Shown here piece after piece: positions 2,757 through 57,900 of a stretch of 64,000 bases of DNA. A program made the translations under genes and the position numbers. How positions within the stretch are numbered: position 1 is the first letter of the stretch; every line of letters starts with the position of its first letter. This DNA comes from a virus: IMG/VR virus record IMGVR_UViG_3300045136_000267. One strand, 5' to 3'. The notes beneath the pieces were generated by a model. The model had not been told where the DNA came from. It did not search any database and worked only from the letters and a program-made list of their open reading frames with translations.

Positions 2757-4071
2757 ACAACCCTCAACTAAAGTCGAAGGTTTTATTGTAGGACGTAGCA
2801 AGCATGCTTGCCCACATCCCCAACATTAGGCGTGTTTACAGCCGCCCTTGGCAGCGGGGCACCACTACCAATCCGGGCAAGGTTTCGACTGGCATTGCAG
2901 TCGGCGTGCGCCCGGAGACCACACTGATCACACACGAAACGATGCTTGATGCGCCGCCCCAACGCCCCGCAGCAAGAACATGTCTGGCTGGTGTAAGCGG
3001 GGTTGGTGTACTCGACCACGATTCCGACGGCCTTGGCCTTGTATTCGACAAAGGTCTGAAGTTGCCGAAAAGCCCAGCGATTCAGTCTCGCTCTCATGCG
3101 CTTACCAGCCTGGATGCTGCTGCGTATGTGGCGCAAGTTTTCCATCACGATCTTGAAAGCACCAATGCGCAGCGCTTCGGCAACAATCGCTTTGCTCGTT
3201 TCGTGGTTGATATGTCTGACACGTCGCCGCTCTCTGCCAGAGACCTGCCTAAGCTTCTGTTTGGCGCTTTGGCTGCCGTTGGACTGCAAACGACGACGAA
3301 GGGCAAGGTATTGATCGCGCTTGTGGCGCAGCTCCCCGCCGCCCCATACCTTGCCAGTGCTGGTGGCAGCGAGATTGTTTTCTCCGACATCCACCCCCAT
3401 AACGGGGCCGGATGTCATGGGTTCAGTATCATCAGACTCGACGACGAGGTCGAAATACCATCGTCCCTTACGACAAACCAACTCGGCTTCTTTGGCTTTG
3501 CCCGACGCAAGGATGCGACGCTGGTGCTCTCCAAGCAGCACGGTGATGGTTATGCGGCCGGAAAGAGTGTAGAGGCTCAAGCGCTCCCCTTTGAAAGAAT
3601 ATGTGCGCTTGTCGAAATGGACGCTCGCGCGTTTGAAACGGATCGCAGGAACTGGGGCGTCCTTTTTAATGCGACCAAGCTCTTTTTGCGCCTTGTAGGC
3701 TTTGCAGACCGAGAAGATGGCATTACAGACCATTTGCGAGCCCAGTGGCGTTTCCTTGCGCAGCTTGGCATAGGCCAGATGGTGCAGCGCCACGCGGTTC
3801 CAGCAGCGGTGCTCCATTACTATTGGCACCAAGCTGTTGCAGGCCTCGGCATAAGCCGACTGCAACGCCGTCAAGGCCGCCGCTTGGTTAGGATCAACAT
3901 TGAGGCGAATCGAAGCGGTGCGCAGCATAGTTTATCGCCGCTTGGTGATATGAATAGACGCAATTCCTATTGGCAACTATGCCAATCACGTAAAACATTA
4001 TACATTATATGGTGCGCTTCGCGCGACTTCAATCCTATCGCGATTGAAATCGCGGGTCTCTCTGTGGAGCG
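2753..4071 (-). mobile_element. IS200/IS605-family element, tnpB only
   Basis: GC-rich island in AT-rich DNA. Terminal hairpins at 2753-2785 (minus strand ...GAGGGTTGTTTAC) and ~4022-4055. No tnpA. Confidence 0.8.
2783..3928 (-). CDS. tnpB: TnpB RNA-guided endonuclease
   Basis: RuvC motifs GVDVG, VMENL and ADCNASRNL; Zn finger CSCC...CDQC; W-x-F-x-Q-L motif. Confidence 0.92.
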   Translation of the reverse strand: MLRTASIRLNVDPNQAAALTALQSAYAEACNSLVPIVMEHRCWNRVALHHLAYAKLRKETPLGSQMVCNAIFSVCKAYKAQKELGRIKKDAPVPAIRFKRASVHFDKRTYSFKGERLSLYTLSGRITITVLLGEHQRRILASGKAKEAELVCRKGRWYFDLVVESDDTEPMTSGPVMGVDVGENNLAATSTGKVWGGGELRHKRDQYLALRRRLQSNGSQSAKQKLRQVSGRERRRVRHINHETSKAIVAEALRIGAFKIVMENLRHIRSSIQAGKRMRARLNRWAFRQLQTFVEYKAKAVGIVVEYTNPAYTSQTCSCCGALGRRIKHRFVCDQCGLRAHADCNASRNLARIGSGAPLPRAAVNTPNVGDVGKHACYVLQ

Positions 4072-12640: not shown

Positions 12641-13216
12641 ATGTATCAGCTCAATATTCCCAAAATAGCGATACGTGCTATCATTAGGCCTGAAACGTAC
12701 CATGTGCTTTACTCGAAAAGAGACGTAATACAAGAGATGCTCTCTTTTGGGTTTGAGTTTATTAAGAAATATAAACCTTCTGAAACTGATTTAATGCATA
12801 AAAATCTGGGTCCGCTGACTTTGTTCAAACAATTGAATGCTACGGAAGAAGAAGTATTAAAGAGCTTAGCAGCCCTGGGACTTTGCTGTCTAGATAACTA
12901 CAAACAGTTTCAGGTTCCAATCCTTGATGCCCTTGAAGGAGAAGCATCAGAATTAATGACTGTAATCACATTTCCTCCCTACCAGGAGGCAATTATCCGC
13001 TCGTTTATTGCAATTACTGCTATATTCAAGAATGCTAAAAATAATGGCGTGGGTATTAGTAACGAAGATATTTTTAAAATGTTATTGAAAATACTCAAGA
13101 ACCTAAAAGAACTAGAGAACGATGTAGAAACGTTTGTTGCTATTAATTTGATTTTGCTCGGTGCTTTGATTATAGAGAGTGTCTCAATTTACAATCAACA
13201 GATGCAGTGCAACTAA
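12641..13216 (+). CDS. Hypothetical protein, tandem paralog B
   Basis: Same upstream sequence CTCCTACAGAAAGGAGTA as paralog A; ATG at 12641. Confidence 0.75.
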   Translation: MYQLNIPKIAIRAIIRPETYHVLYSKRDVIQEMLSFGFEFIKKYKPSETDLMHKNLGPLTLFKQLNATEEEVLKSLAALGLCCLDNYKQFQVPILDALEGEASELMTVITFPPYQEAIIRSFIAITAIFKNAKNNGVGISNEDIFKMLLKILKNLKELENDVETFVAINLILLGALIIESVSIYNQQMQCN

Positions 13217-16507: not shown

Positions 16508-16518
16508 AGTCCTTTCGC

Positions 16519-16554
16519 GTTGCAATGCCTGCGAAGAGGCTTGGTTTCTTCGAC
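16519..16554 (+). CRISPR. Solitary 36-bp CRISPR repeat
   Basis: GTTGCAATGCCTGCGAAGAGGCTTGGTTTCTTCGAC; near-identical to the repeats at 20265 and 20326. Confidence 0.8.
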
Positions 16555-16603: not shown

Positions 16604-17314
16604 ATGAGGTACCTATCTCTCCTTATTGGCCTGCTTTCTATTTGTATTACCATTACTTCTCAAGCACAAAATCTCAAAACACTTAATGACCCAAATGTTG
16701 AAGTAAGGATTTTGTGTGATGGTGTACAAATTACTAATACGAGTCCTGCAGAAGTCAGTGTATTTGATTGGACTGTAGTAATTGGACAGAGAACTGATGA
16801 TCATTATCCTCAGCCGTTGTGTTGTGCTTATATTTTAGATGGTAAATACGATCCAGTTATCACTTACACTTCATTTGGAACTCCAAAGCAAGGTCTTCGC
16901 GAGAACGTTAGAGGCGGTGGTTTCTATTTTCATTGCACAATCCCACCACGTAATTCTGTCGTACTAAGGGCTCTAGTACTTGGTTTCGGTAATGCTCACG
17001 CTATTACAAATATTCCGAAAAACGCAGTTTATAAACGAGTTAATAGAAATCTTGGTAGAAAACATGCTTTTGGAATCTATGCTTGCATGTCTACAATTCA
17101 AACTGCAATAGATAAGGGAGTCACTAAAGAAGAAGATTTGAAATCGACCAAAGAGATTGGTATCCTGCTATTAGCTTTTTACGAAGAAAAATTTCCAGAA
17201 TATGCGAGAATACGAGCTGTCATTTCAGAAGACTTTTATAAACAGCTAAGAGATCATTTCAGTGATATGCAACGCACAGGAGAACAACTATATAAAACAG
17301 TCTTTTGCGAGTAA
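16604..17314 (+). CDS. Exported protein with signal peptide; probable distant paralog of 20483..21229
   Basis: GGAGG SD; MRYLSLLIGLLSICITITSQA leader; DGVQITNTS versus DGILKIINNS in the paralog. Confidence 0.7.
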   Translation: MRYLSLLIGLLSICITITSQAQNLKTLNDPNVEVRILCDGVQITNTSPAEVSVFDWTVVIGQRTDDHYPQPLCCAYILDGKYDPVITYTSFGTPKQGLRENVRGGGFYFHCTIPPRNSVVLRALVLGFGNAHAITNIPKNAVYKRVNRNLGRKHAFGIYACMSTIQTAIDKGVTKEEDLKSTKEIGILLLAFYEEKFPEYARIRAVISEDFYKQLRDHFSDMQRTGEQLYKTVFCE

Positions 17315-17542
17315 TTAACTCTAATAAGATTTGCAAGATTAACAAGTCCAAGGCGAATTTGGACGGTCAATTATCCTTCCACAGTTGCAAAAATATAGTC
17401 TATGACACTGTCGTGTACCACAAACGCCGGTGGTAATGTTGAGCTACCGGAAACGCTATGGGCGGGCGGTCCGCCCATGTAATCACCAGCCAGAGTGCTG
17501 GCGGCGAGCCGGCTTGGCCGAGACGACCGGAGGAGTGTTGCT

Positions 17543-18307
17543 ATGTCTGCTATTGTTAAGGTTACCGTTCAGCGTACCAAGGATTGGGTGCGCGCACGGC
17601 GATTGGAAACCGGGGAAAACGTCCCGGAAACAATCGAAGTTGAGGTCCTAGCAGATCAGTTACCTCGCGAAGTCCGGGAGCTACTGATCGAAGCCGGGGG
17701 CGGATCATACCCCGACGAATTCGCTGGCGATATCCGGCAGGACTACCTATGGATGTATCGGTCCGACTTGCGGTACGGGCGTGTACCGATCATCGTAGAT
17801 GCCGACCAACCGACGCCGGAGTCAATAGCCGCGGCGATTCTGACTGCCGACAAGGAACGGCGTCGGATGAAGATGGAAGTTGAGGAAAAGATTCGTCAGC
17901 GTGAAGAACGAGAGCGTGCACTTGCCGAAGAATGGGCGCGGCTGCCCCTGGAGCAGCGGGCCAGTGCGGCTGGCGTGTGCGTTGCCCGCGACCCCGAGAC
18001 GGGTACCATGAGCGCCTATGGGGTGCAATTGTACGATATCTCGGCGCTGAAGAAGTACGTACCAGAGGCGTTGGACGAGGCGGTCCTGGAGGTGGAACGC
18101 CTTCGCGAAATCGAGCGTGGCAGAGAGGCGATCAAGCATCGCGCTCTGCTGGCTGAATTACTCGGCTTAGTACCAGAAGACGCGCTGCGGCATGCCGTTA
18201 AACGTGCCGCCATTGATGGTATCGCCGGGAAACCGGCGTCAATTGAAGAAGTGCGGAAACAAGTCCATCAAGCCTGCCAGGCTGGCGGCGTCCGCATAAG
18301 TATTTAA
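17543..18307 (+). CDS. Hypothetical GC-rich coiled-coil protein upstream of the Cas12-like gene
   Basis: GGAGGAG SD before the ATG at 17543; E/R/K-rich central helix. Confidence 0.7.
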   Translation: MSAIVKVTVQRTKDWVRARRLETGENVPETIEVEVLADQLPREVRELLIEAGGGSYPDEFAGDIRQDYLWMYRSDLRYGRVPIIVDADQPTPESIAAAILTADKERRRMKMEVEEKIRQREERERALAEEWARLPLEQRASAAGVCVARDPETGTMSAYGVQLYDISALKKYVPEALDEAVLEVERLREIERGREAIKHRALLAELLGLVPEDALRHAVKRAAIDGIAGKPASIEEVRKQVHQACQAGGVRISI

Positions 18308-18328
18308 CAAACGTTGCGTTTATTACAG

Positions 18329-18360
18329 GCGGCCGGTGTGTACTCAAGCACCGGCCGCCG
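18329..18360 (+). terminator. GC-rich hairpin after 17543..18307
   Basis: GGCGGCCGGTG...CACCGGCCGCC inverted repeat; weak U tract. Confidence 0.45.
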
Positions 18361-18480
18361 TTGTATCGGAAATCAGCGCTTCCTACTTCGCCCTGCAGTA
18401 AGAGATGCTCTAACGAATGTTGTCTATTCTAGTGGAACTGAGGGTTCTTTATCTCTAGGAATGGGAATAGGAGGACTATC

Positions 18481-20142
18481 ACGCCATTCGGCAGAATAGC
18501 CGGCCCAACTATTGTCTATAAATATGGGGCGAAAAAACCAACTACAAACGCAGAAGCGATTTTGGACCAGTTGCGCAAAGCACATCAGTACCGCAACAAG
18601 CTTGTCGAAATAGAGCTTCAACGACGCAAACTCGTCGAAGAAGCTGTCAAGAATATCGAAAGTGATGTCCGCCATTTGACGGACAAGTTAGAACAGCTTG
18701 AACTGGACATTGACTATACGGTTAGAAAAATCAGCAACCACAAACAGAAGAATCAGACTCGAACTATCCCTGTCGAATTGAAAGAACGTCTCAAATCATT
18801 GAAAACTCAGTACAGAGAAGCGCTGCGGCGTATGAAAAAGGCCAAGAAAGCCGCGTACGCTCGTCCAGAAACGCAGGAGGCATTGAATCGAATTGAAGGA
18901 AAAGTGAGGGCTGAACACAAAAAAGCCCGTAATTTGTGTGGGCTCTATTGGGGTACTTACTGCCACGTAGAGCAGATCATCCCATGTATCAGAAAAGGAC
19001 CGCCGCCGAAATTCCGCCGTTTCGACGGCAGCGGTGTATTAGCGGTCCAGCTTCAAAAGGGAGAAAACATTGCACGGTTGGAGAGCGGCGAAGACCGTCG
19101 CATCCGCATTGAGGGCTGCGGCAAGCGACGCATATTATGGCTGCGCATCGGATCGGACGAGAACCGCGATCCGATCTGGGCGACGATTCCATTTACTTAT
19201 CATCGTGAAATTCCAAGCGATGCGAAAATCAAGTGGGTGAAAGTCAAAGCCCAACGCATTGCATGCCAAACTGAGTGGGAGGTGCTCTTTACGCTGGAAC
19301 GGAGTTCCGGCTGGAAAAAGCCCGACCTAGCTCAGGATGGAGCAGTTGCCATCGACATCGGTTGGCGCAATTTCGATGATCGCATTCGCGTAGCATACTG
19401 GATTGGTAGTGACGGACGCGAAGGCGAAATTGCACTGCCCCATAACATGGTTGGCAAGGCGCTTGAACAAGTTGAGCATTTACGATCATTGCGAGACAAG
19501 AATTTTAACGAGATTAAGCAGCAACTGCTTGACGCTATCGGTGCGCTCCAGATTCCGGAGTGGCTAAAGGAGGTTACGAAAACGCTGCATCAGTGGCGTA
19601 GTCAAGGAAGACTGGCGGCGCTGGCCATTCGATGGCGGCAACAGCGATTCGATGGTGACAATGATATATTTGCTCTACTAGAAACGTGGCGGGTCCGCGA
19701 CAAGCACCTTTACGAATGGGAGGCACATCTCCGCGTGAAGGCTATTCGTTGCCGCAACGATTATTTTGCCAACGTCGTAGCCGATTTGTCTCGTCGTTAC
19801 AAGACAGCGGTTGTTGAGGATTTTGACTTGCGGAACGTTACACAGGTCGATCCGATACAAACGGAACAAATTGGCGATGGACGTCAGCTCTATCGTGCAC
19901 ACATCGCCGCGGCCGGTGGCTTACGGCAGATGATTAAGAATCGCTTTGCCGAAACGCAGATCGTGTCTGCCGTGCTCACAACGCAGACCTGCACGGAGTG
20001 CGGCGAAATCATGAACTTCGACGCGGCCGAGAGCGTATTTAGCAAATGTTCACATTGTGGCCATGCGTTTGATCAAGACCGCGCAGCGGCGATTAACCTG
20101 ATGCGACGATACGAGGAAAGGCTAGTTGCTGCGAACAGCTAG
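18481..20142 (+). CDS. cas12m: Cas12m (type V-M/V-U1)-like CRISPR effector, ~553 aa
   Basis: N-terminal IVYKYG...QLRKAHQYRNKLVEIE, long coiled coil, GLYWGTY, FRRFDGSGVLAVQLQ, HREIPSDA. RuvC-I VAIDIGWR, QWRSQGRLAAL, RuvC-II VVEDFD, Zn finger CTEC...CSHC, RuvC-III DQDRAAAINL. Adjacent 36-bp repeats. Confidence 0.82.
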   Translation, partial: TPFGRIAGPTIVYKYGAKKPTTNAEAILDQLRKAHQYRNKLVEIELQRRKLVEEAVKNIESDVRHLTDKLEQLELDIDYTVRKISNHKQKNQTRTIPVELKERLKSLKTQYREALRRMKKAKKAAYARPETQEALNRIEGKVRAEHKKARNLCGLYWGTYCHVEQIIPCIRKGPPPKFRRFDGSGVLAVQLQKGENIARLESGEDRRIRIEGCGKRRILWLRIGSDENRDPIWATIPFTYHREIPSDAKIKWVKVKAQRIACQTEWEVLFTLERSSGWKKPDLAQDGAVAIDIGWRNFDDRIRVAYWIGSDGREGEIALPHNMVGKALEQVEHLRSLRDKNFNEIKQQLLDAIGALQIPEWLKEVTKTLHQWRSQGRLAALAIRWRQQRFDGDNDIFALLETWRVRDKHLYEWEAHLRVKAIRCRNDYFANVVADLSRRYKTAVVEDFDLRNVTQVDPIQTEQIGDGRQLYRAHIAAAGGLRQMIKNRFAETQIVSAVLTTQTCTECGEIMNFDAAESVFSKCSHCGHAFDQDRAAAINLMRRYEERLVAANS

Positions 20143-20264
20143 GTACGATAATATAGATATTAATCGCTCGTAATATACAAGTTGAAACAACGTAATAGAT
20201 GTCACAACGACTGCTACCAAAAAGAGGTCCAACATGTTATAAAGAACATAGTTAGATGAACGCT

Positions 20265-20361
20265 CGTGCAATGCCTGCGAAGAGGCTTTATTTCTTCGAC
20301 AGTGAAATGGATGATCAGAAGGGAACGTGTAATGCCTACGGAGAGGCTTCATTTCTTCGAC
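20265..20361 (+). CRISPR. Mini CRISPR array: two 36-bp repeats and one 25-bp spacer
   Basis: CGTGCAATGCCTGCGAAGAGGCTTTATTTCTTCGAC (20265-20300), spacer AGTGAAATGGATGATCAGAAGGGAA, CGTGTAATGCCTACGGAGAGGCTTCATTTCTTCGAC (20326-20361). Starts 122 bp after the effector stop codon. Confidence 0.85.
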
Positions 20362-20375
20362 GAGGCGTCAGTACT

Positions 20376-20448
20376 GGGCCGGTAGCTCAGTGGTGAGAGC
20401 GGGCGCCTTATAAGCGTCAGGTCGCAGGTTCAATTCCTGCCCGGCCTA
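20376..20448 (+). tRNA. tRNA-Ile(TAT)
   Basis: Acceptor GGGCCGG/CCGGCCT; anticodon arm GGCGC-CTTATAA-GCGTC; GGTTCAATTCC; no CCA. Confidence 0.92.
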
Positions 20449-20482
20449 CTGTTTCATCCCCTTCCCCATATAGGAGGACAAT

Positions 20483-21229
20483 ATGACGAAGGTACGAAAC
20501 ATTGCTCTGTTCATTTTGATTTTCTCTCTTGGATTCGTAGGTTGTAAGTCTAAGGACGTTGTAGGACAGAAATATATTGATCCCTATGACATGGCTATTG
20601 ATTATGTATACGAAGATGGAATTCTTAAAATTATCAATAATTCAAACAAACCTGTAGAGCTTGCTACACCAACGGTGTTTTTGGGATTCCCCTCTAAAGA
20701 GGGTGAAAATATGTTTTTCCTCCTTCTTAAGGAGGGAACGCACTCATTGACCCTTTATGATTTTGGTGGCGAGGACTACGTTGAGGATATTTATCCTTCA
20801 AACGATAATTCCAAAGTTAAAGAGATCTTGGTTGTTGACTTGAAGCCCAAGGAAGTTAGGGAATATCCCGTAATTGCCGTTGCTATTCCTACCGAGGGAT
20901 TTAGTTATCTGGTTGGAGACGGTACTTATGCTGTCCTTCCAGTAATCGGACACCACGAAAAGCGTTGGATCACCTTTATTGCTCTGTCATTCCTGGCAGA
21001 AGTATTGGATAAAGACAACTCTGATCTATACAAGAAAGCATTGGCTCTTGCTTTGCGATTCATTTGGGTAGGACCAAATGATGACACTGAATTGAAAAGT
21101 ATTGAAAAAGACTTGTTGCAAGAAGGCTGGTCAGAAGATGTTATCTCAGTTGCCTTTTCTGTCTTTGGAATGGCAAGGGAGAAAGCCAGGAAACATTTGA
21201 AGGATATTACGAAGATTAAAAGAATCTGA
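20483..21229 (+). CDS. Putative lipoprotein
   Basis: AGGAGG SD; signal peptide ending in lipobox-like FVGC. Confidence 0.75.
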   Translation: MTKVRNIALFILIFSLGFVGCKSKDVVGQKYIDPYDMAIDYVYEDGILKIINNSNKPVELATPTVFLGFPSKEGENMFFLLLKEGTHSLTLYDFGGEDYVEDIYPSNDNSKVKEILVVDLKPKEVREYPVIAVAIPTEGFSYLVGDGTYAVLPVIGHHEKRWITFIALSFLAEVLDKDNSDLYKKALALALRFIWVGPNDDTELKSIEKDLLQEGWSEDVISVAFSVFGMAREKARKHLKDITKIKRI

Positions 21230-26914: not shown

Positions 26915-28150
26915 GCGGCGCGGAAACCCCGGACTTCAGTCCGGGGAGGAAGCGCCGTCTCTTGATCTGCTCTGCGGTATGTGATACTATACAGTATGCC
27001 ACAGCGCACCGTTGTATGCAAGATAAATCCAGCCCCGGTGGCGGCTAACGCCCTCAAGGATACTGTAGAGAAGTACGCGCTCGCCTGTGATGCTATCCTC
27101 GCCGTAACCATCCGTGAGAAGACTTCCAACAAGGTTAAGCTCCATCACGCCTGCTACAGGGAGATCAGGGAGCGCTTCGGCCTCTCTGCCAACCTGACCG
27201 TCCGCGCCATTGCCCGCGTGGCGTGGGCGGTCAAGGCAGCAAGGTGCAAGGGACGAGTCGTCAAGAAGTTCAAGCCGACGAGCATAGACTATGACGAACG
27301 CATCTTCTCCTATCGCGAGAATGAGGAGGTAGTGTCCCTATCTACCACGAATGGACGTGTCCGCGTCCCCCTTGTACTCGGACAGTACCAGCGAGATGCA
27401 TTGCGCGGGAAGAAACCCACCGCCGCAAAGCTCGTCTATCGGAACCGTGAATGGTACATCCACATCGTCATAGAGTATGATCCGGGCCCGCGGTCCAACC
27501 CGAGCTGCGCCATCGGCGTGGATCGAGGTGTCTACAATATCGCTACTACCTCCACAGGGAAGTTCTATTCCGGACGTAAAGCCACGCACGTGCGCGAGAA
27601 GTTCGCGTCGCGGAGAAAGGCTCTCCAGAGCTTGGGCACGAAAGGCGCAAAACGCGCCCTGAAACGGCTGAGCGGACGGGAGAGCCGGTACATCCGCGAC
27701 CTGAACCATCGAATCTCGAAGGCCATCGTTGCGGAGGCGGTTCGGAGAAACGCCGTGATCAAGTTGGAGGACTTGACCGGCATCCGGGATCGCCTCAAGC
27801 GGCTCAGCCGCGCTTGGAATCGGAAGGTCAACGCTTGGGCTTTCCGAGCACTGGAGACGATGATCCGGTACAAGGCCGAACGTGCTTGGGTCGAAGTCGT
27901 TTCGGTTCCTGCTCGTGACACGAGCCGCGAATGTTCCAAGTGCGGAGCCGTGGGCGAAAACTCTCGAAGCGGGGCACATTTCAGGTGCGCCGTCTGCGGC
28001 TATCGTCTGGCCGCCGACTTGAATGCCGCAAGGACGATTTCTGGGAGGCATGCCTGCACAGAAATGGTCGCCGTCAACCGACCTATGGTGGCGGGGTTGC
28101 ATTCGTGCACCTCAGCTACAAGCCCCGCACTTTAGTGCGGGGTAGTTGAC
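26915..28150 (+). mobile_element. IS200/IS605-family element, tnpB only, just 3' of tRNA-Lys
   Basis: Left hairpin CCCCGGACTTCAGTCCGGGG; right end CCCCGCACTTTAGTGCGGGGTAGTTGAC; GC-rich. Confidence 0.85.
26996..28135 (+). CDS. tnpB: TnpB RNA-guided endonuclease
   Basis: RuvC GVDRG, KLEDL and ADLNAARTI; Zn finger CSKC...CAVC. Confidence 0.92.
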   Translation: MPQRTVVCKINPAPVAANALKDTVEKYALACDAILAVTIREKTSNKVKLHHACYREIRERFGLSANLTVRAIARVAWAVKAARCKGRVVKKFKPTSIDYDERIFSYRENEEVVSLSTTNGRVRVPLVLGQYQRDALRGKKPTAAKLVYRNREWYIHIVIEYDPGPRSNPSCAIGVDRGVYNIATTSTGKFYSGRKATHVREKFASRRKALQSLGTKGAKRALKRLSGRESRYIRDLNHRISKAIVAEAVRRNAVIKLEDLTGIRDRLKRLSRAWNRKVNAWAFRALETMIRYKAERAWVEVVSVPARDTSRECSKCGAVGENSRSGAHFRCAVCGYRLAADLNAARTISGRHACTEMVAVNRPMVAGLHSCTSATSPAL

Positions 28151-28163
28151 AGGAGGACTCTCT

Positions 28164-29171
28164 ATGTTAAATATGGTAGAGTATTATGTGTCGATTTCAG
28201 TTGTGAGAGACGTTGTACTACAACTATTTAAGATTATCCTTGCTGAAAAGGATATGGCTAATGACAAGGACGGCTTTACTGATTTCACCAAATCAGTAGC
28301 CAAAAGTGCCTTGCAGAAATTGCTGCCATATTATGAGCCTGACAGAGAATCAAAGAAATTTGAAGATAGGATATTGAAAGAAATTTATGACGCAGAAATT
28401 AATCTTGATCATGTAAGCTCGTTAGATGAAAAACTAATGAGATTACGTGAAGTACTTAGTGCTATTTCAGATGAAGATCTTGATAACTTATGTGAAGCAG
28501 CAAAGTTGTTTGTTGGTATCTTCTTCTACATTGCTAATCAAGAACCCAATAATATTTTCCTTTTTGATTCAGTACGAGATAAAGTAAAACGATTAGTAGA
28601 AAGTGAATCAGAATATAAATTCCCATTACTAGTAGATATTGGTGATTTGTTCATAGTTAGTTTAGTTAAAGGTAAGCAATCTGTTCTGAACGATAAAAAC
28701 ATTGCATTATTACTTGACTACAAATTGATAGCATCTAAAGAGAAGCATTACAAATTTATCATTCACTACTTGAAAAACGAGCCTGCTTATCTTGATTTTT
28801 ATCAATTAAAGCAGGTTTATAAAGAAATTGAAGATTGTCTAGATAAATTGAGTGAAAGATTTGATAGCAAAGCTACTATTAAATGCCTTTGCTATCTGCA
28901 GTATGCAAAGACTACTGCAGAAAAACTTGACAAAGAAAAATACGACTCTCTACTTGAGAAGGTAGAAAAGATCCTGGGGCCACTTGATCCGTACGTTACT
29001 ATGGCGGTGCTGAGTGATAAATTGCTAGCACCCTTCTTGTTCGTATGCAATGAAGATGTTCTTATTCCTACTTTCAGGAGAATCAAAAATGAGCAATTAA
29101 CCTTCACTAACGAATTGCTGGAAAGTAATTTGCGTTCTTTATTTGGAAGTGGCGAGCTACGTCTTGAGTAG
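28164..29171 (+). CDS. Hypothetical helical protein
   Basis: AGGAGG SD immediately after the IS right end. Confidence 0.7.
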   Translation: MLNMVEYYVSISVVRDVVLQLFKIILAEKDMANDKDGFTDFTKSVAKSALQKLLPYYEPDRESKKFEDRILKEIYDAEINLDHVSSLDEKLMRLREVLSAISDEDLDNLCEAAKLFVGIFFYIANQEPNNIFLFDSVRDKVKRLVESESEYKFPLLVDIGDLFIVSLVKGKQSVLNDKNIALLLDYKLIASKEKHYKFIIHYLKNEPAYLDFYQLKQVYKEIEDCLDKLSERFDSKATIKCLCYLQYAKTTAEKLDKEKYDSLLEKVEKILGPLDPYVTMAVLSDKLLAPFLFVCNEDVLIPTFRRIKNEQLTFTNELLESNLRSLFGSGELRLE

Positions 29172-29208
29172 TCCTTGTTCACCTAATATCAAAAAAGGAG
29201 GATCAGCT

Positions 29209-29859
29209 ATGTCTAAGCATGAGCAGAATCAGCTAGAGCATGTTCACTTCCGTCATCGGAATGAGGTGCTGGCCTTTAAGGCCACGCAGGAATGCGTGGT
29301 GTTCCGTACTGTGAAGGGGCACTTCGTCATCATTGGTGACGTTGTTTCGATTCACCTTGGTGATTCGAATAGCTTCCAAAGTGTTGTCGTTAGTGAAGTT
29401 GTAGAGAAGTTTGGCGGTCTCGGGACGTACAAGGATGTGATTGTCCCAGCACCGCTGCGTAAAGCGGTGTACGAGTACTTTGTCAAGGAAACCAGTGACG
29501 AACCTGCCTTGTTCCGGATTCCGAATGGGGAATTTTACTTCCCAGAGAAGGTTTACAATGTCTCCTACTGGAGAAAGTTGTGTTCTCTTGAACCGCGGCC
29601 GGGATACGAGAAGGTCCGCTTCGTGTGTAAGCGGACCAAGATTAAATCCGGTGAAAGTTGGGCGGTCGGTATCTACGCCGGGCGCAGGATGTGGCCTAAG
29701 CTCTTTGGTCATGCCATTGGATACGGGTCTCCGCTTCAAATTGTCGATGCTTTGCCGAATGTTGTGGTAGAGGACCTTGGTCATCCGTTGGATGATTATC
29801 ATGCTGATAACGTTGTAGATGCAGTGGAGGTGAAAGCTTGTCACCTCCGCCCAGAGTAG
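29209..29859 (+). CDS. Hypothetical protein (GC-richer)
   Basis: AAGGAGG SD; followed by a hairpin terminator at ~29895-29940. Confidence 0.7.
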   Translation: MSKHEQNQLEHVHFRHRNEVLAFKATQECVVFRTVKGHFVIIGDVVSIHLGDSNSFQSVVVSEVVEKFGGLGTYKDVIVPAPLRKAVYEYFVKETSDEPALFRIPNGEFYFPEKVYNVSYWRKLCSLEPRPGYEKVRFVCKRTKIKSGESWAVGIYAGRRMWPKLFGHAIGYGSPLQIVDALPNVVVEDLGHPLDDYHADNVVDAVEVKACHLRPE

Positions 29860-29966
29860 TAAATTGATATTTAATAGCTAAAAAAAGCAGCACTAGGGCG
29901 GGGTGGGAATAATCCCATCCCGCCTATCTCTTTTTATTTGACCGGTAGTACAGTTTTACATCTATC

Positions 29967-30353
29967 ATGGAGGAACATATGGATCTCCAGTCTTTATTGA
30001 ATAAGTATTTGTGCAAGGAAGCTACTCAATTAGAGACAGCTGCAATCTGTACTACAGATGTAATTTGTACTGAATATGCTGGGATGCGGCATCCCGCATT
30101 GATTAATTATTGGGATATTGAAAATGTATTTAATATCAGCTTGCTTGCTAATGGAAAAATAAAAATGACTAGTGATAGTTTAAGATATGAATCTAGATTT
30201 GGAAACCTAGTGCTGACAGCTAAGTATGCTCCATTAGTAGTAGCTAATTGTCTATTAGAAATATTCGTAAAACAGTGGAAGGGAACTTTGCAGCTTCCCA
30301 GCTCTTGTTCACAGTTCATTTTTAACACCCCTAAAGCTTCAGCAGCTTCTTGA
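29967..30353 (+). CDS. Hypothetical protein
   Basis: ORF; start may be the second Met (GGAGG SD). Confidence 0.55.
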   Translation: MEEHMDLQSLLNKYLCKEATQLETAAICTTDVICTEYAGMRHPALINYWDIENVFNISLLANGKIKMTSDSLRYESRFGNLVLTAKYAPLVVANCLLEIFVKQWKGTLQLPSSCSQFIFNTPKASAAS

Positions 30354-30861: not shown

Positions 30862-30876
30862 GGCATAAATAAGTGG
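30862..30876 (+). promoter_or_regulatory. Phage promoter-like motif (also at 31505, 32623, 33484, 36306, 36737, 39071, 41359, 41448)
   Basis: GGCATAAATAAGTGG; recurs upstream of genes and is usually followed by a GC-rich hairpin. Confidence 0.7.
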
Positions 30877-30926: not shown

Positions 30927-31337
30927 ATGAGTCACGCTCAAAAGATTTGGCAGTCGCTTTGTATGCATCGTGGCAAGGTTGTGATGGTAGTGCTTCTCAT
31001 GACCACCCTTTTCGCTGCCTTCTACATTTTGAACAGCAATTCCGGCCTTGATAGGAAAGCACAGGCAATTGCGGTTCAGTTGTCAAAACGAATTGGTGTA
31101 CCATACAACGAGGCTTATTTGATTGCCAAGAGTACGTTGAAGGAAGCTGAGAAATTGCCTGAACGCGGCAGCTTCTTCGAGAATATTTGGTACGGGTCTC
31201 CACGGGCCCGTTATTTGGAAAACACTATTGAGACGAGATTGAGGCGAGCCGGCATGTCCGGATTTTGGTTGGGTAGTGAAGTCCGTACTTCGGTTCGCAG
31301 CGGCCTCCGTGAGGCCGCCGAGCCGCAGAAGAAGTAG
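30927..31337 (+). CDS. Membrane-anchored hypothetical protein
   Basis: Hydrophobic stretch VVMVVLLMTTLFAAFYIL; lies between the promoter motif and a terminator. Confidence 0.65.
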   Translation: MSHAQKIWQSLCMHRGKVVMVVLLMTTLFAAFYILNSNSGLDRKAQAIAVQLSKRIGVPYNEAYLIAKSTLKEAEKLPERGSFFENIWYGSPRARYLENTIETRLRRAGMSGFWLGSEVRTSVRSGLREAAEPQKK

Positions 31338-31345
31338 TTGTCCTG

Positions 31346-31390
31346 GGGCCTGCTGACCTACTCAGTAGGCCTCTTTTTTAGCTAAAAAAT
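31346..31390 (+). terminator. Hairpin + TTTTTTAGCT terminator-like motif (similar at 32968, 34560, 36205, 36620, 37032-37105, 48005)
   Basis: GGCCTGCTGA...TCAGTAGGCC-TCTTTTTTAGCTAAAAAA. Confidence 0.75.
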
Positions 31391-31584
31391 AAATGCACGA
31401 TATTTAATCTCGTGCACGTATTTATACGTGCGTTTTATTGCTTAGTTTAAGGTGCTTTTTTGCATTAATTGCACGTTCGTCAATGGACTTAGCTATAGAA
31501 TTAAGGCATAAATAATTGGTGGAAATTAGTTGTTTTCCACCGGCCATTCCCCGGGCCATTGACGGGGAACAGGAAAGCAAGAAT

Positions 31585-31908
31585 ATGACTAGCACTAACA
31601 AGGTTGCAGGCTCAAGGATCGTTGTGTTTGAGGCAGAACTTGTGGAAATCTTGAAACAGAAGTCGCTGGCAGCCGCTGCCGGTTATTTGCATTCGCAAAA
31701 CCTTCGCTACAACGGTAGCGCCTACCGCTACCGTTGCTTGTCTTCTGGCGATTTGTTCGACTTGCGCCGGCTGCCCGACGGGCGGCTAGTGCTGCGGAAA
31801 TTGACTCCGCTCGGTGAGTTCCAGCATCCTCGGGCCGCTGATGCATTCGTGTACTCGGCGCGTGAAAACGCGCCGAAAGGAAAAGAATACTTCTGGGTCA
31901 AGATCTGA
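31585..31908 (+). CDS. Hypothetical protein (GC-rich)
   Basis: Downstream of promoter motif at 31505; AGGA SD. Confidence 0.65.
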   Translation: MTSTNKVAGSRIVVFEAELVEILKQKSLAAAAGYLHSQNLRYNGSAYRYRCLSSGDLFDLRRLPDGRLVLRKLTPLGEFQHPRAADAFVYSARENAPKGKEYFWVKI

Positions 31909-31990
31909 CCCAGAGAGCGCGGCTTGCCCAAGGCCGCGCTATATAAATGAAAACTTGGGCTTTCTTTTTTACCTAAAGAGGAGCCCAGAT

Positions 31991-32629
31991 ATGTTACTAG
32001 CTCCACAGATATTTGAAGAAGAATTATCTTATCTCAAATGTGTGGATATTTGTTCTGACAAATATGTTGTCACTAAATCTGATTTAGTTACGTTTGTTTC
32101 TTCTATTGGTGAGATGGAATTATTTGACGTGATTGGTAGGGAAGAATTTGATTCCAATAGAATTAAGAAAGAATTAGAGCATGTGGAAGCCACTACAATT
32201 GCTGATCTAGTTCTAGATTATTTGAATTATGACTTTGATTCATATTTGCATGAATATGCGAAAGAACTTGGAAAAGAATTTGATGACTGCGTTGTTACTT
32301 GTTCTGAGGAAACAGAATTTGCTGCCTCCGATATTTTAGATACTTGTAACACGCTACTTAGCGTAGAAGTTGCTATCAAACAATATTTTGATGGTGTAAA
32401 TAAAGAATTATTTGGATTGTTTTGTGACAAACGTCGTCATTTTGATACCTTACTTCAGATGCAAGATAATTTGAATGTATTAGCTCGTTATGTAAATTTG
32501 AATGAACTTAAAAATTGGCGTAAGCTTTGGAAGCCAAGGGTGAAGATTGATATCCCTTGGTGGCTTGATGGAACGCTGGAATTTCTGTGCAAGGATGCAC
32601 AGAGAAAAGTTAAGAAAAAGAGTGAATAA
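31991..32629 (+). CDS. Hypothetical acidic protein
   Basis: GAGGAG SD before the ATG at 31991. Confidence 0.65.
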   Translation: MLLAPQIFEEELSYLKCVDICSDKYVVTKSDLVTFVSSIGEMELFDVIGREEFDSNRIKKELEHVEATTIADLVLDYLNYDFDSYLHEYAKELGKEFDDCVVTCSEETEFAASDILDTCNTLLSVEVAIKQYFDGVNKELFGLFCDKRRHFDTLLQMQDNLNVLARYVNLNELKNWRKLWKPRVKIDIPWWLDGTLEFLCKDAQRKVKKKSE

Positions 32630-35700: not shown

Positions 35701-36012
35701 GTGAGCATTTATTTTCCGGTCGGCAAACCTAATATCATTAGATGGTATTCCCCTGACGGGAAGCACTCGGCGGTGCTACATGTGACGAGCACCACGAATC
35801 CGAGGGCTAATGATACCTTGACATTTTACTTCCGGGATTACAATGGTAACCCAGCGACAGCGCTTGATGGATTAGTTCTATCCTTAGATGGGGTCACCTC
35901 TGTCATTGGTACAGAGGTGCGGGCATACGTAGACAGGAATATATTAGCTACTGTATTTAGCCCTAAGATGACTTTGAAGGTAGGTAATGATATTTGGATT
36001 ATGAATAAATGA
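35701..36012 (+). CDS. Hypothetical protein
   Basis: GGAGG SD before GTG start. Confidence 0.6.
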   Translation: MSIYFPVGKPNIIRWYSPDGKHSAVLHVTSTTNPRANDTLTFYFRDYNGNPATALDGLVLSLDGVTSVIGTEVRAYVDRNILATVFSPKMTLKVGNDIWIMNK

Positions 36013-36373
36013 GATGAAGATAGTAGCAGGGGCCAGATGATCCCCTGACGGGGACAGGGGACACACGATTCAGCTGCATATAGTTTAGGCTTGATCGTAA
36101 TTCGATAATAAAATAAGATTATATCTAGCCCCCTCCTTGCGCCCCCGGTCGCGCCCTTGTGGCGTGGCCGGGGGTTTTTTATTTTCGCAGCTTCAAGCAT
36201 TTGCTTCTTTTTTAGCTCAATGAGAAAGAAGAAGAGGGGCTACTTGTTTTCGGGTGCCCGCATTCGGAAAGGCTTCTGGGGGCCAGACGAACGCGCTGCT
36301 AAGCTGGAATAAATAATTGGGAGGCCCCTGCTGTGGGGGCCGATTTGAGTCCACGTACATAAGGAGCATAAGC

Positions 36374-36559
36374 ATGTACGTGGTTATCTTCTCGTATTCT
36401 GAACGGGGGCCGGTGCGGCGGCTCCCGTTCAAGGCTAAGAGCCGGGCTATTCGGGCGGCCCGGCTCCTTGAGAAGGCAGGCCTTCGGGCTTGCCTCATTA
36501 GCCCGTATCCCCTGCGGACTTCCCCGCAGGGGAACAAGGAAATGAAGCCCCGGGTTTGA
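36374..36559 (+). CDS. Small basic protein (GC-rich)
   Basis: Promoter motif at 36306, AAGGAG SD, terminator downstream. Confidence 0.6.
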   Translation: MYVVIFSYSERGPVRRLPFKAKSRAIRAARLLEKAGLRACLISPYPLRTSPQGNKEMKPRV

Positions 36560-36801
36560 TCCTGGGGCGGCTCCTGGGAGGTCGGTCTCTACTCCCAGGA
36601 GTAAAAAGCATAGAGACCTTCTTTTTTAGCTAAAAAACAATGATTTTTTAGTTAATAATAAAAGCTAATTAGTTAGTAACAAAGCTAGTTTTTTTATAAG
36701 CAAGCTATAGCTGTATGGGCAAGGTAGGAAGTAGCAGGCATAAGTAATTGGAAGGCCTCCGCCGTGGAGGCCGAATTCGTTCCGCGTCCGGGAGGGGAAA
36801 A

Positions 36802-37014
36802 ATGTACGCGGTGCTAATATACCATACGAAGGGCAGCGACCTGACAGGCCACGAGGTCGAGCGGGTGAACTTCACCACCCTCTCGGCGGCCGAGGAGGCC
36901 GCCGAGAAGGCTCAGCACGAGGGCAAGGATGCCATCGTGCTGCACATCATCCGCCAGCCCTACCGATTTACGGTAGGGCCCGACGGGATCATCCGGGACA
37001 TTGAGTGGTGCTAG
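36802..37014 (+). CDS. Small hypothetical protein (GC-rich)
   Basis: Promoter motif at 36737, GGAGG SD, hairpin terminator at 37032-37078. Confidence 0.65.
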   Translation: MYAVLIYHTKGSDLTGHEVERVNFTTLSAAEEAAEKAQHEGKDAIVLHIIRQPYRFTVGPDGIIRDIEWC

Positions 37015-39381: not shown

Positions 39382-39804
39382 TTAATCGAGATTTCTCTCG
39401 TTTTTATCCATTGCTTCAAGCAGCTTCTGTCTGAATAATTTGGAAAGCAATTTTGCTTGCTCTTTAGTAAGATCGACTCTAAGCTCTCTTCGGCCTTTAT
39501 TGCCTTTAGTGGGCGCTTTCTTGGCAGCGGCTTCTATAGCGGCTATAACTGGCTTGAGCTGCTGCTGTATCCTTGGATCGCCGTTAAAGATCTCACTTAG
39601 GAATTTAGCTGCCATTTCAGCAAAATTATTATTACCAACCGTTAAAGTTCTAGCAGCATTTCTGCCTCTTCTTCTAGCAATACCTGCTTCCCTTTCAGGT
39701 ATATCCAAATCTTCATCCTCAGTAAATAACAGATAGTTTTCATTACTAGCACGCTTAAGCATATGCGTACAATAAAGCAATAAAGGTTCGAGGTAGCTGC
39801 TCAT
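39382..39804 (-). CDS. KxA-leader protein, one of few minus-strand genes
   Basis: GGAG SD; N-terminus SYLEPLLL...MLKRAS. Confidence 0.65.
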   Translation of the reverse strand: MSSYLEPLLLYCTHMLKRASNENYLLFTEDEDLDIPEREAGIARRRGRNAARTLTVGNNNFAEMAAKFLSEIFNGDPRIQQQLKPVIAAIEAAAKKAPTKGNKGRRELRVDLTKEQAKLLSKLFRQKLLEAMDKNERNLD

Positions 39805-39830
39805 TTAAAGTTACTCCGGACAGGTCGAAG

Positions 39831-39866
39831 GTCGAAGACATGAAGCCTCTTCGCAGGCATAAAGTA
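39831..39866 (-). CRISPR. Solitary 36-bp CRISPR repeat on the minus strand
   Basis: Reverse complement reads TACTTTATGCCTGCGAAGAGGCTTCATGTCTTCGAC; the 3' 30 nt match the other repeats except in the loop. Confidence 0.78.
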
Positions 39867-55230: not shown

Positions 55231-57900
55231 ATGGCATTCCAAGAATTTGATGTAAGTCAACCTATAACCAATAGACTATCTCATCTAAATCCATTCTTGG
55301 ATTATTCTAGCCTATTCCAACCGTCAAACTGGACTAATGCTCTACGGTGGTGTCATCATCCTAATACTTGGATAGAATGCGATTCTAATATAAAGCCTAT
55401 TACACAACTTTCAGTAGGAGATAAAGTACTTGCAGATAACGGTAAATATTTAGAAGTTACTAATATAATCTCCAGAGAATATTCTGGGGATATGGTAAGA
55501 ATATATCCACATGGCGGTTTCCACTTAGATGTAACCGCAGACCACAAGGTTTATGTAATATTTGATAATTTCTCTGATGTACAACTTATCCCAGCAGTAG
55601 ATGTTACACCAGATCATTACATTTTAGTTCCATCTCGGAAAAGTAATTCTGCTGAAGTTAATGCTTCAGAAGGAATGTCTTTTATAAAGCTATCTAAAGA
55701 ATCTATTACTCTTCATAACGAATTGTTAAGAATAAATAATACCGACTTGATTCATAACTATCTACGCTTTTTAGTTGATAACTACAAAACTAGAGAAGAT
55801 TCTAATTGGTACTATCTTAAATTAGATGGAATTCCTGTATCAGATGCTTTTCCCGTAGTTTATTCATTAAATAGATTCTTAGACTCTATTGGAATGGTAT
55901 CTTATGTAGATGAATTATTTGAAATAAAGATAAAGAGAGATCTCCTATTTCCGATTCTTAACGACCCTTTTGTACCTAAACCTAGGACTACATTTTCTAA
56001 AGATGTTGTCTACAAAGACGGTTATATCTTTAGAAGGGTTAAACAAGTATTACATTATCACTACACTGGACCGGTATACAGTTTAACTATTGCAGATTTA
56101 CACAAATATGTAGCTAACGGCGTTCTCGTTGCCAATTGTGAGTACATTGTTATTAAGAGCGGAATTTTACGTTCTGCCATAGATAGAATTATCAGTTTCT
56201 TCATTACAGATATAGAAGTAGAGAACGCAGATAATTCTCTTAGAAAGAAATATTATGATTATCTTGTCAATGATCTGAGAATTAAGGAATTCTTAAGATA
56301 TTGTGCTTTTGATTACATAACTTATGGTAATTTCTTTGTTTCTGTTTTACCATCTATAAATAGAATAGCACGATGTCCCGAATGTAGTTTCACTAAATCT
56401 ATTAGTAAATTTAATAACAGAATTAAATATTCTAATGGTAAATTCCAAGGAATATGTGATAGTTGTGAAAAACATGTAGAGTTTAAAACCAAGGAATATA
56501 AAGATAAGAATAGTAAATTAATACTTAAAAGGTGGAAAATTTATGATATCAGATTATTTGAATTTGATGACTTTACTGGCAATTACGACATTCTATGGGT
56601 AATTCCTCAGGAATATAAAGAATTTATAAGAAATAAAGCTACTAATAGAACTATTGGATCAGTACCTAGAGAAGTGCTTGACGCTGTTGATACTAATTCT
56701 GATTTAAAATTTAACAGAGATACTATTTATCATGGGAAAGAAGAATCTTTGAGTGGAGTAAGACTCAAGGGTTGGGGATTAAGTAGAATCTTTTCTTGCA
56801 TCCAACAAGCATGGTACGTACAAGTGCTTCATAGAATGAATGAGGCTATTGCTTTAGACTATGTACTACCATTAAGAATTATTACTCCTATGCCTAGATC
56901 TTCTATGGAAGGTGGTGATCCTATTAGAGATATCAACTTCGGCGGTTTCTCTGCTAGATTAGCTTCTATTTTAGATATGCGTAGAAGGGATCCTACTTTG
57001 TGGCATATTTCTCCATATCCACTTGATTATAAATCTATTGGTGGAGATGGTAGAAATCTTGCTCCAAGAGAAATGTTTGAATTTGCAGTAGATCAGTTAT
57101 TAAATAGTCTGAGCATTCCAATTGAATTCTACAAAGGATCAATTCAAGTAAGCTCGGCCCCTTTTGCTATGAGAGTATTAAATTCTAACTGGAATCATTT
57201 AGTAGGAGCACTTAATGGTTTCTTATCTTGGTTATCAAATAGAATTTCTTCAGAATTAGATTGGGAACCTGTAAGAGTTAGACTAGCCTCTCCGACTCAC
57301 GTTGATGACATTAATACTCAGATGCTTAAGTCTAGACTTGCTATGAGTGGTCAGCTAAGTAAGGATGAAATGTTTAGCTCTATGGGTATGAACTATGAAG
57401 AAGATCTCAGGAGACAGTTAGAAGAGCAGATCCTGTCTGCTCAAGAGACTAATAAAGCTCAAGAAAGAATAGAAAAACTAAATCTAGGTAAAGACATGGC
57501 CTCTGGAGCTTACATGCAGCAAATGCAACAACAAGCTCCTCCAGGAGGCGTAGGAGGCGCTCCTGGTGGAGGAGGTGGTGCACCCCCACAACAGGGCGCT
57601 TCAATGGCTTATGATCCTGTATCTCAAATCTTGGCTAGCTTACCACAAGGTCCCATGCAAAATGTTAATCCTATGGAGCTAGATAATCTAGCTACACAGG
57701 TAGCTCTGTCTATTAGAGGTAGACCCGAGCCTGAGAAGGATTCCTTGTTGAGGCAGCTTAAGGTTAAGAATGAAATGCTATGGATGGTAGTTAAAGAGAA
57801 ATTGAATGATATGAGGGCTGCGGATAGCCGCCAAGGAGTAATTATGGGACAGCAACAAGCGGCTCAAGCAGCTGCCGGTTCTGTACAACCTCCTATGTAG
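55231..57900 (+). CDS. Portal-like protein containing an intein
   Basis: After intein removal: NPFLDY...ALRW/CEY, AIDRIISFFITD, DYITYGNFFVS, GWGLSRI, EAIALDYVLPLRII. CxxC...CxxC insertion; Q/G/P-rich tail. Confidence 0.62.
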   Translation: MAFQEFDVSQPITNRLSHLNPFLDYSSLFQPSNWTNALRWCHHPNTWIECDSNIKPITQLSVGDKVLADNGKYLEVTNIISREYSGDMVRIYPHGGFHLDVTADHKVYVIFDNFSDVQLIPAVDVTPDHYILVPSRKSNSAEVNASEGMSFIKLSKESITLHNELLRINNTDLIHNYLRFLVDNYKTREDSNWYYLKLDGIPVSDAFPVVYSLNRFLDSIGMVSYVDELFEIKIKRDLLFPILNDPFVPKPRTTFSKDVVYKDGYIFRRVKQVLHYHYTGPVYSLTIADLHKYVANGVLVANCEYIVIKSGILRSAIDRIISFFITDIEVENADNSLRKKYYDYLVNDLRIKEFLRYCAFDYITYGNFFVSVLPSINRIARCPECSFTKSISKFNNRIKYSNGKFQGICDSCEKHVEFKTKEYKDKNSKLILKRWKIYDIRLFEFDDFTGNYDILWVIPQEYKEFIRNKATNRTIGSVPREVLDAVDTNSDLKFNRDTIYHGKEESLSGVRLKGWGLSRIFSCIQQAWYVQVLHRMNEAIALDYVLPLRIITPMPRSSMEGGDPIRDINFGGFSARLASILDMRRRDPTLWHISPYPLDYKSIGGDGRNLAPREMFEFAVDQLLNSLSIPIEFYKGSIQVSSAPFAMRVLNSNWNHLVGALNGFLSWLSNRISSELDWEPVRVRLASPTHVDDINTQMLKSRLAMSGQLSKDEMFSSMGMNYEEDLRRQLEEQILSAQETNKAQERIEKLNLGKDMASGAYMQQMQQQAPPGGVGGAPGGGGGAPPQQGASMAYDPVSQILASLPQGPMQNVNPMELDNLATQVALSIRGRPEPEKDSLLRQLKVKNEMLWMVVKEKLNDMRAADSRQGVIMGQQQAAQAAAGSVQPPM
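55351..56136 (+). mobile_element. Intein (262 aa) in the portal-like gene
   Basis: Block A CHHPNTWI, PITQLSVGDKVL, block B VTADHKV, block F/G VYSLTIADLHKYVANGVLVAN followed by +1 Cys. Confidence 0.9.

Follow-up and report, generated by a model that had tools for sequence, protein, structure and literature searches.

The 64,000-nucleotide stretch of the IMG/VR virus record IMGVR_UViG_3300045136_000267, here called the window, carries cas12m, a gene for a CRISPR effector, followed by a small CRISPR array (Table 1). With a probability that we put at roughly 70%, the two form a type V-M Cas12m module, an accessory cassette of a large hot-spring-mat phage, that acts in conflicts among mobile elements by RNA-guided silencing through DNA binding. 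The phage contig is 164.6 kb long and comes from a hot-spring or microbial-mat metagenome. This reading draws on the family and fold of the protein, the array and the structure of its repeat, searches for adaptation genes that found none, dN/dS values that indicate purifying selection, and the gain and loss of the cassette among relatives.

Judged from profile matches and a predicted model, the window protein is a full-length, ordinary Cas12m (type V-M, formerly V-U1). The PADLOC Cas12u1 profile (V-U1, now V-M) matched it with an expect value (E) of 1.1e-97 over profile positions 3-532 of 533. In a sequence search of solved structures, Cas12m chain 23vw_A matched residues 19-549 at E 1.9e-68, Cas12m2 followed at E 1e-21 and GoCas12m (8pm4) at E 1.6e-19, and TnpB and Cas12f chains reached only about E 1e-2, over the zinc-finger end. 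The record of 23vw_A is named "CRISPR-associated DNA-binding protein Cas12m"; we found no paper for PDB entry 23vw or 23vu, and from its length and residue numbering only we take 23vw to be TfCas12m. An AlphaFold2 model built with 47 homologs (predicted local distance difference test, pLDDT, 90; predicted template modeling score, pTM, 0.80) shows long helices at residues 24-152. In Foldseek its template modeling (TM) score is 0.84 to both Cas12m2 (8hhl) and GoCas12m (8pm4), compared to about 0.42 to Cas12f and 0.35 to ISDra2 TnpB. The model has the bilobed Cas12m fold, with WED, REC1 with a coiled-coil REC2 insertion, RuvC and TNB zinc finger, and two solved structures, Cas12m2 and another Cas12m, can be aligned to it at the motifs RFDGSG.LAVQLQ, GWR and DQD.

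The original prediction had named a Cas12m-like protein from the order of its motifs, and the profile, structure-chain and fold matches bear this out. It had also placed the protein near the transition from TnpB to Cas12m, which the end-to-end Cas12u1 match and the fold scores do not support; both of the comparisons that it proposed, of profiles and of structures, put the protein with Cas12m and not with TnpB. NCBIfam TnpB models scored far under their cut-offs (31.6 versus 350 and 27.1 versus 100), and no TnpA was found with Pfam among the ORFs (open reading frames) of the 64-kb window. Insertion sequence (IS) ends around the gene had been named as a sign that would speak against a Cas12m; a search for IS-like inverted repeats flanking cas12m found none.

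The array consists of two 36-nt repeats ending in GAC, as predicted, on either side of one 25-nt spacer. The core pattern of the repeat occurs in four copies in the window and in none of 100 shuffles. GCCU at positions 9-12 can pair with AGGC at 19-22, and CGAAG at 14-18 with CUUCG at 30-34; across 25 distinct repeats, this pseudoknot is paired in 96.9% of cells, compared to 35-62% after sliding of the partners. There is covariation in stem II, with AU, GU, CG and GC at one pair, and stem I is invariant. Counted from the 3′ end, the paired positions coincide with those in the structure obtained by cryo-EM for PmCas12m CRISPR RNA (crRNA), in which -28..-26 pair with -15..-17 and -23..-20 with -3..-6. 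The repeat thus fits the predicted pseudoknot, and the claim on where the four copies differ holds position by position: the differences fall at positions 1-6, 13, 25-26 and 28 (unpaired), or leave a G-U pair at position 16. A plain ViennaRNA hairpin of the free repeat was no better than those of shuffles, a result uninformative on the pseudoknot since the tool cannot model one; the repeat matches no Rfam family. Some units are trailed by their final 7 nt (CTTCGAC) once more, at window 39819-39831 (minus strand) and in two related loci (L003:4748 and L005:5967; L numbers designate such loci throughout).

Arrays of 6 to 11 repeats of the same family lie beside homologs in L001, L003, L005 and L006, and the family is also found in arrays of Solirubrobacterales (L027) and Verrucomicrobiae metagenome-assembled genomes (MAGs), the distant bacteria of L027 and L028. 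Spacers are 36-37 nt long in the L001 and L006 arrays and irregular, about 15 to 50 nt, in a number of the arrays, which fits systems without an adaptation module of their own. The Solirubrobacterales locus (L027:2711-4421) has 25 repeats, its spacers range from ~17 to 45 nt, and its 8 kb contain no homolog of cas12m. In the window, none of the 75 ORFs of at least 70 aa matched Cas1, Cas2 or Cas4 in Pfam (E<=1e-5), and none of the three appeared in 25 of 59 PADLOC families, among the matches listed. The original claim of a minimal CRISPR system on a phage-like genome, with no cas1, cas2 or cas4 in 64 kb, is thus upheld. No anti-repeat, that is, no complementarity to the repeat of at least 10 nt, was found within 17300-20800. 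The locus therefore shows what is expected of type V-M: an adjacent array with a 36-nt pseudoknot repeat, no adaptation module found and no candidate trans-activating CRISPR RNA (tracrRNA) found.

By analogy with characterized members, Cas12m would bind the 36-nt repeat as a pseudoknotted handle, cut its own pre-crRNA inside the repeat and, with a guide of ~17-20 nt, tightly bind double-stranded DNA (dsDNA) flanked by a protospacer-adjacent motif (PAM), without cutting it. Once bound, it would keep the target, in all likelihood a rival phage or another mobile element, from being transcribed or replicated. Plasmids are enriched in type V-M systems, which also occur in prophages (PMC11656645). 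The original prediction had offered a short-guide repressor as one of its readings; repression is the established mechanism of the family and the likeliest here, but "short-guide" is not needed, since the spacer is 25 nt long and mature Cas12m guides are about 17-20 nt.

Comparison of relatives indicates that cas12m behaves as a repeat-bounded cassette gained and lost within one phage lineage, as L003, L005, L020 and L026 differ at this site. L003 has cas12m with eight repeats and L005 has it with six; L020 has an additional repeat upstream of the gene. In L026, with flanks 91% identical, cas12m is absent, and the gene for a 270-aa protein is followed by a two-repeat array and then the tRNA region. 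This 270-aa ORF, upstream of cas12m in the window, travels with it in L001, L003, L005 and L020 and is retained in L026. The GC content is about 51% for cas12m and 59% for the ORF, in a genome of about 35%; L001, which shares both genes, is a 58%-GC contig with SNF2, PrimPol and UvrD genes.

At the other edge of the cassette, tRNA-Ile is preceded in relatives by the motif GCATAAATACTTGG, and in the window the array takes the place of this motif. Because the last repeat abuts the tRNA leader and the promoter-like motif is replaced, tRNA-Ile is probably cotranscribed with the array. When no more than one mismatch is allowed, the motif occurs 11 times on the plus strand of the window, and several of these sites immediately precede ORFs, so that it is probably a phage promoter. 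The recurrent motif GCATAAATAAGTGG, a probable phage promoter, lies in intergenic DNA just upstream of ORFs at 30863, 31506, 33485, 36738 and 41449 and, with one mismatch, at 12796, 16493, 32624, 36307, 39072 and 41360, all on the plus strand; if two mismatches are tolerated and both strands are counted, it has 51 matches, compared to 24 expected.

On the plus strand, the cas12m frame runs without a stop from 18460 until the TAG at 20140-20142. The length (about 553 aa) and motifs given in the original prediction are right, but its first codon, ACG, was overlooked there. Five database proteins (553-556 aa, 84-93% identity) begin M[P/A]FGR at the codon matching window 18481-18483, which is ATG in all relatives compared (P0002-P0006). 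The difference from the 90%-identical L003 is a single T>C; in the start region, L003 reads ACTATCATGCCATTC and the window reads ACTATCACGCCATTC. L001 likewise has ATG behind the same AGGAGG, and the Shine-Dalgarno sequence is conserved ahead of ATG in L001, L003 and L005. The identical ACG occurs in a second assembly, probably of the same sample; two 526-aa database entries were considered as independent variants and rejected, being the same sequence as the window protein. The earliest canonical in-frame start is a TTG at 18562, whose use would cost 27 conserved residues, invariant positions included. Pairwise dN/dS values to L003, L005 and L001 of 0.07-0.10 indicate that the gene is under strong purifying selection despite its ACG start. 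The window branch has 10 unique amino acid changes, all at variable columns, and L003 has 10 as well.

The acidic residues that the original prediction had picked out in AIDIG, VVED and DQD are all present, as D292, E446 and D533, together with the zinc finger. The intact RuvC, which it had taken as a distinguishing mark, is instead the majority state: the alignment shows D-E-D in 90 of 119 homologs (76%), with NDD, NAD, HAD, NGD, HDD and similar forms in the rest, and the four zinc-finger cysteines in 103 of 119. The closest solved relative, 23vw_A, is also D-E-D. Cas12m clades 3 and 4 carry D-E-D, NED or DND (PMC10442227). Bigelyte et al. (2024) picked four D-E-D proteins to test, MsCas12m, ApCas12m, TfCas12m and UnCas12m; a viral contig of IMG/VR is the source of UnCas12m (PMC11013384). 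dsDNA cleavage was undetected for all Cas12m proteins tested, with PAM-dependent binding in six of eight; the four D-E-D proteins bound dsDNA but gave no dsDNA, single-stranded DNA, RNA or collateral cleavage, and pre-crRNA processing, tested with MsCas12m, was RuvC independent (PMC11013384). D-E-D, H-D-D and N-D-D proteins alike bind, do not cut and process pre-crRNA (PMC11013384). Since D-E-D is the commonest state and the tested D-E-D proteins do not cut, an intact triad is not unusual and, on the evidence so far, not a sign of a nuclease.

Two of the four repeat copies are solitary. The promoter-like motif, in a copy with one mismatch, stands 8 nt ahead of repeat A, which lies 50 nt before the ATG of a gene for an exported protein. 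Compared to L003, from which it is absent, it is an exact 40-nt indel between near-identical flanks, with no duplicated target site. Relative L011 has repeat D conserved at the corresponding site. A second pair of filled and decayed sites is seen in L024, with a solitary repeat at L024:372-399, and L012, with a 16-nt remnant at L012:2300-2330.

The spacer leads to no convincing target. Its 25 nt have no exact 20-nt match in IMG/VR and two in GTDB genomes (596 Gb), in two Thermodesulfobacteriota MAGs; judged by its translation, the gene matched in both looks like biotin carboxylase. We rejected these as a target, as about one chance match is expected in 596 Gb, the match stops at 20 nt, TAT stands at its flank and L003's homologous spacer is unmatched. 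A 13-of-14 (16-of-20) match at window 62934 was set aside as near chance level. The spacers of the L001 and L006 arrays gave nothing useful against INPHARED phages, in which the DNA of the locus itself had tRNA matches only. All spacers of 14 related loci, compared to all the DNA sequences retrieved, yielded no protospacer, and hence no PAM could be derived.

Several observations weigh against a functional phage-borne silencer. No protospacer was found in the window, related contigs, IMG/VR or INPHARED phages; the array is limited to two repeats with a single spacer; and, given the ACG start, there may be very little of the protein or none. No published function explains why 76% of homologs retain D-E-D, so Cas12m could still be a nuclease under other conditions. 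Finally, the phage origin of the window rests on four tRNAs, a T4-type RNA ligase, HNH endonucleases, a DHFR and a tail-fibre-like match.

One can envision that the D-E-D RuvC cuts host or rival-phage DNA, as in conventional type V effectors. The catalytic residues and zinc finger are all there, the triad is held by most homologs under strong purifying selection, and two-metal hydrolysis was suggested by Omura et al. as a possibility for clades 3 and 4 (PMC10442227). We nevertheless consider a nuclease quite unlikely, given four D-E-D proteins, one of them viral, without any cleavage (PMC11013384), a closest solved relative that has the same triad and was deposited as a DNA-binding protein, and the failure of Cas12m2 to regain cutting when its H-D-D was reverted to D-E-D (PMC10442227). 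In addition, the triad is gone from about one-quarter of homologs, which show various replacements (NDD, NAD, HAD, HDD), so catalysis is dispensable for the family. The start codon raises a different doubt, namely that the module is decaying or silent in this genome, with translation knocked out by the change from ATG to ACG and with the two-repeat array and scattered repeats as remnants. An ACG start points to weak expression or a very recent knock-out, the same codon recurs in the second assembly, relatives have 6-11 repeats instead of 2, and close relative L026 has lost cas12m entirely. This too seems unlikely: the 553-codon frame is fully open, and the changes specific to the window equal those of L003 in number and lie at variable positions. 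With the Shine-Dalgarno sequence intact at ideal spacing, near-cognate initiation at ACG is possible, and any loss must be very recent.

Other alternatives concern the repeats, mainly the solitary ones, which might not be guides at all but RNA decoys against a host or rival V-M system, or sites in phage mRNAs for Cas12m-dependent processing or regulation. Viruses are known to carry solitary repeat units behind promoters, some acting as RNA anti-CRISPRs (Racr), a function shown for types I-F, I-E, I-C and V-A (PMC10651486). Both solitary repeats here (at 16519 and 39831) are in the matching position, in 5′ leaders far from cas12m, with A just past the promoter-like motif. Relatives L026, L011, L012 and L024 have repeats without cas12m, and the repeat family is conserved in V-M arrays of distant bacteria (L027 and L028). 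Against this, the phage itself carries the cognate effector, both solitary copies are in mRNA leaders and not in small terminated RNAs, and no host genome with the exact repeat, nor a matching host array, was found for this habitat. We regard decoys or regulatory sites as possible, though doubtful. A bolder variant, decidedly unlikely in our view, joins Cas12m and the leader-embedded repeats into one circuit. Cas12m may cut the leaders at the repeat, so that the first ~20 nt of each leader becomes a guide; such a guide could not bind the phage's own copy, where the repeat sits at the PAM position, but could act on the empty sites of rivals. In the empty L003 allele of repeat A, the leader sequence follows CTT (CTT + ATTTGTAAGG...), and the tRNA-Ile leader follows TTG. 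Published Cas12m PAMs are YTN and TTN, which CTT and TTG resemble, and this allows an empty-site reading like that of TnpB; with two cases and a PAM not derived, it may serve as a lead only. If true, the circuit would resemble "empty sites" targeting by TnpB, with rival phages excluded or converted as the outcome. Another possibility is posttranscriptional regulation of the phage's own genes by Cas12m through the repeats.

Table 1. Features of the cas12m locus and solitary repeats (window coordinates)
Feature	Position	Strand	Remarks
Solitary repeat A	16515..16554	+	40-nt block, TCGC plus 36-nt repeat (16519-16554)
GC-rich ORF, 270 aa as listed	17495..18307	+	No Pfam, NCBIfam or PHROG family
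GC-rich hairpin, 11 bp	18328-18359		Perfectly conserved; follows 270-aa ORF
Shine-Dalgarno AGGAGGA	18469..18475	+	Ends 5 nt before codon 18481; read from sequence
cas12m coding sequence	18481..20142	+	553 codons plus TAG at 20140-20142; first codon ACG
RuvC-I Asp D292 in AIDIGWR	19354..19356	+	Aligned to Asp of AIDLGWR in 23vw_A
RuvC-II Glu E446 in VVEDF	19816..19818	+	From alignment to solved Cas12m and homolog alignment
TNB zinc finger CxxC...CxxC (C504, C507...C523, C526)	19990..20058	+	Pfam PF07282, E 4.9e-8
RuvC-III Asp D533, second D of DQD	20077..20079	+	Invariant in 12 close homologs
AT-rich leader between cas12m and array	20143..20264	+	No anti-repeat found
CRISPR repeat 1, 36 nt	20265..20300	+	Ends GAC; 123 nt downstream of cas12m stop
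Single spacer, 25 nt	20301..20325	+	Diverged homologous copy in L003
CRISPR repeat 2, 36 nt	20326..20361	+	Ends GAC; five differences from repeat 1, the sole one in a stem giving G-U
tRNA-Ile(TAT)	20376..20449	+	14 nt after last repeat; ARAGORN, Rfam
Solitary repeat D	39831..39866	-	Ends 26 nt before ATG of 140-aa ORF (39382-39804, minus strand)

Elsewhere in the window, a TnpB gene at 26981-28135 (plus strand; OrfB_IS605 and TNB domains, PHROG transposase at E 8e-43) lies in a 59%-GC island. Several GC-rich islands (46-59%), like that of cas12m, are at 3001-4000, 27001-28000, 29001-30000, 31001-32000 and 36001-37000, and their presence in a genome of ~35% GC suggests repeated gene acquisition from higher-GC sources. 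An 889-aa ORF at 55231-57900 (plus strand) has an intein (Hint) domain near its N terminus and weak PHROG matches to the large subunit of anaerobic ribonucleotide reductase.

Taken as a phage-borne V-M silencer, the module enlarges a family from which compact base and epigenome editors are made, by a well-supported Cas12m of a large phage living in a thermal habitat. The present view of Cas12m is left unchanged, as D-E-D and viral members were already known and tested. The closely related phages form a natural series of four states, with cas12m present, cas12m absent, orphan mini-arrays and solitary repeats. This series could reveal the ways in which V-M cassettes spread and the role of solitary repeats whose matching effector shares their virus.

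Among known systems, the nearest are the D-E-D Cas12m proteins (TfCas12m, MsCas12m, ApCas12m, UnCas12m and 23vw; clades 3 and 4). These share with the window protein full-length homology, triad, zinc finger and a length of about 550-580 aa, and with its locus a 36-nt repeat of the same family and the absence of adaptation genes and tracrRNA. What differs here is the setting, a GC-rich cassette in a large AT-rich phage, with a two-repeat array, an ACG start and cognate solitary repeats elsewhere in the same genome. MmCas12m2 and GoCas12m (8hhl and 8pm4) have the same fold, the same domain order with the coiled-coil REC2 insertion and the same crRNA pseudoknot positions, but identity is ~22% and their RuvC is H-D-D. 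The likeness to IS200/IS605 TnpB (ISDra2 and the window's own TnpB) is limited to the RuvC and TNB core, with the C-terminal ~60 residues aligning in the case of the window TnpB; these proteins are about 400 aa long, lack the REC2 coiled coil and use an omega-RNA at the IS end instead of CRISPR repeats. Viral mini-arrays and Racr units resemble this locus in the one-spacer array and in single repeats within 5′ leaders, of which one comes just downstream of a promoter-like motif. The described cases depend on or inhibit Cas proteins of the host, whereas this phage itself encodes the matching effector.

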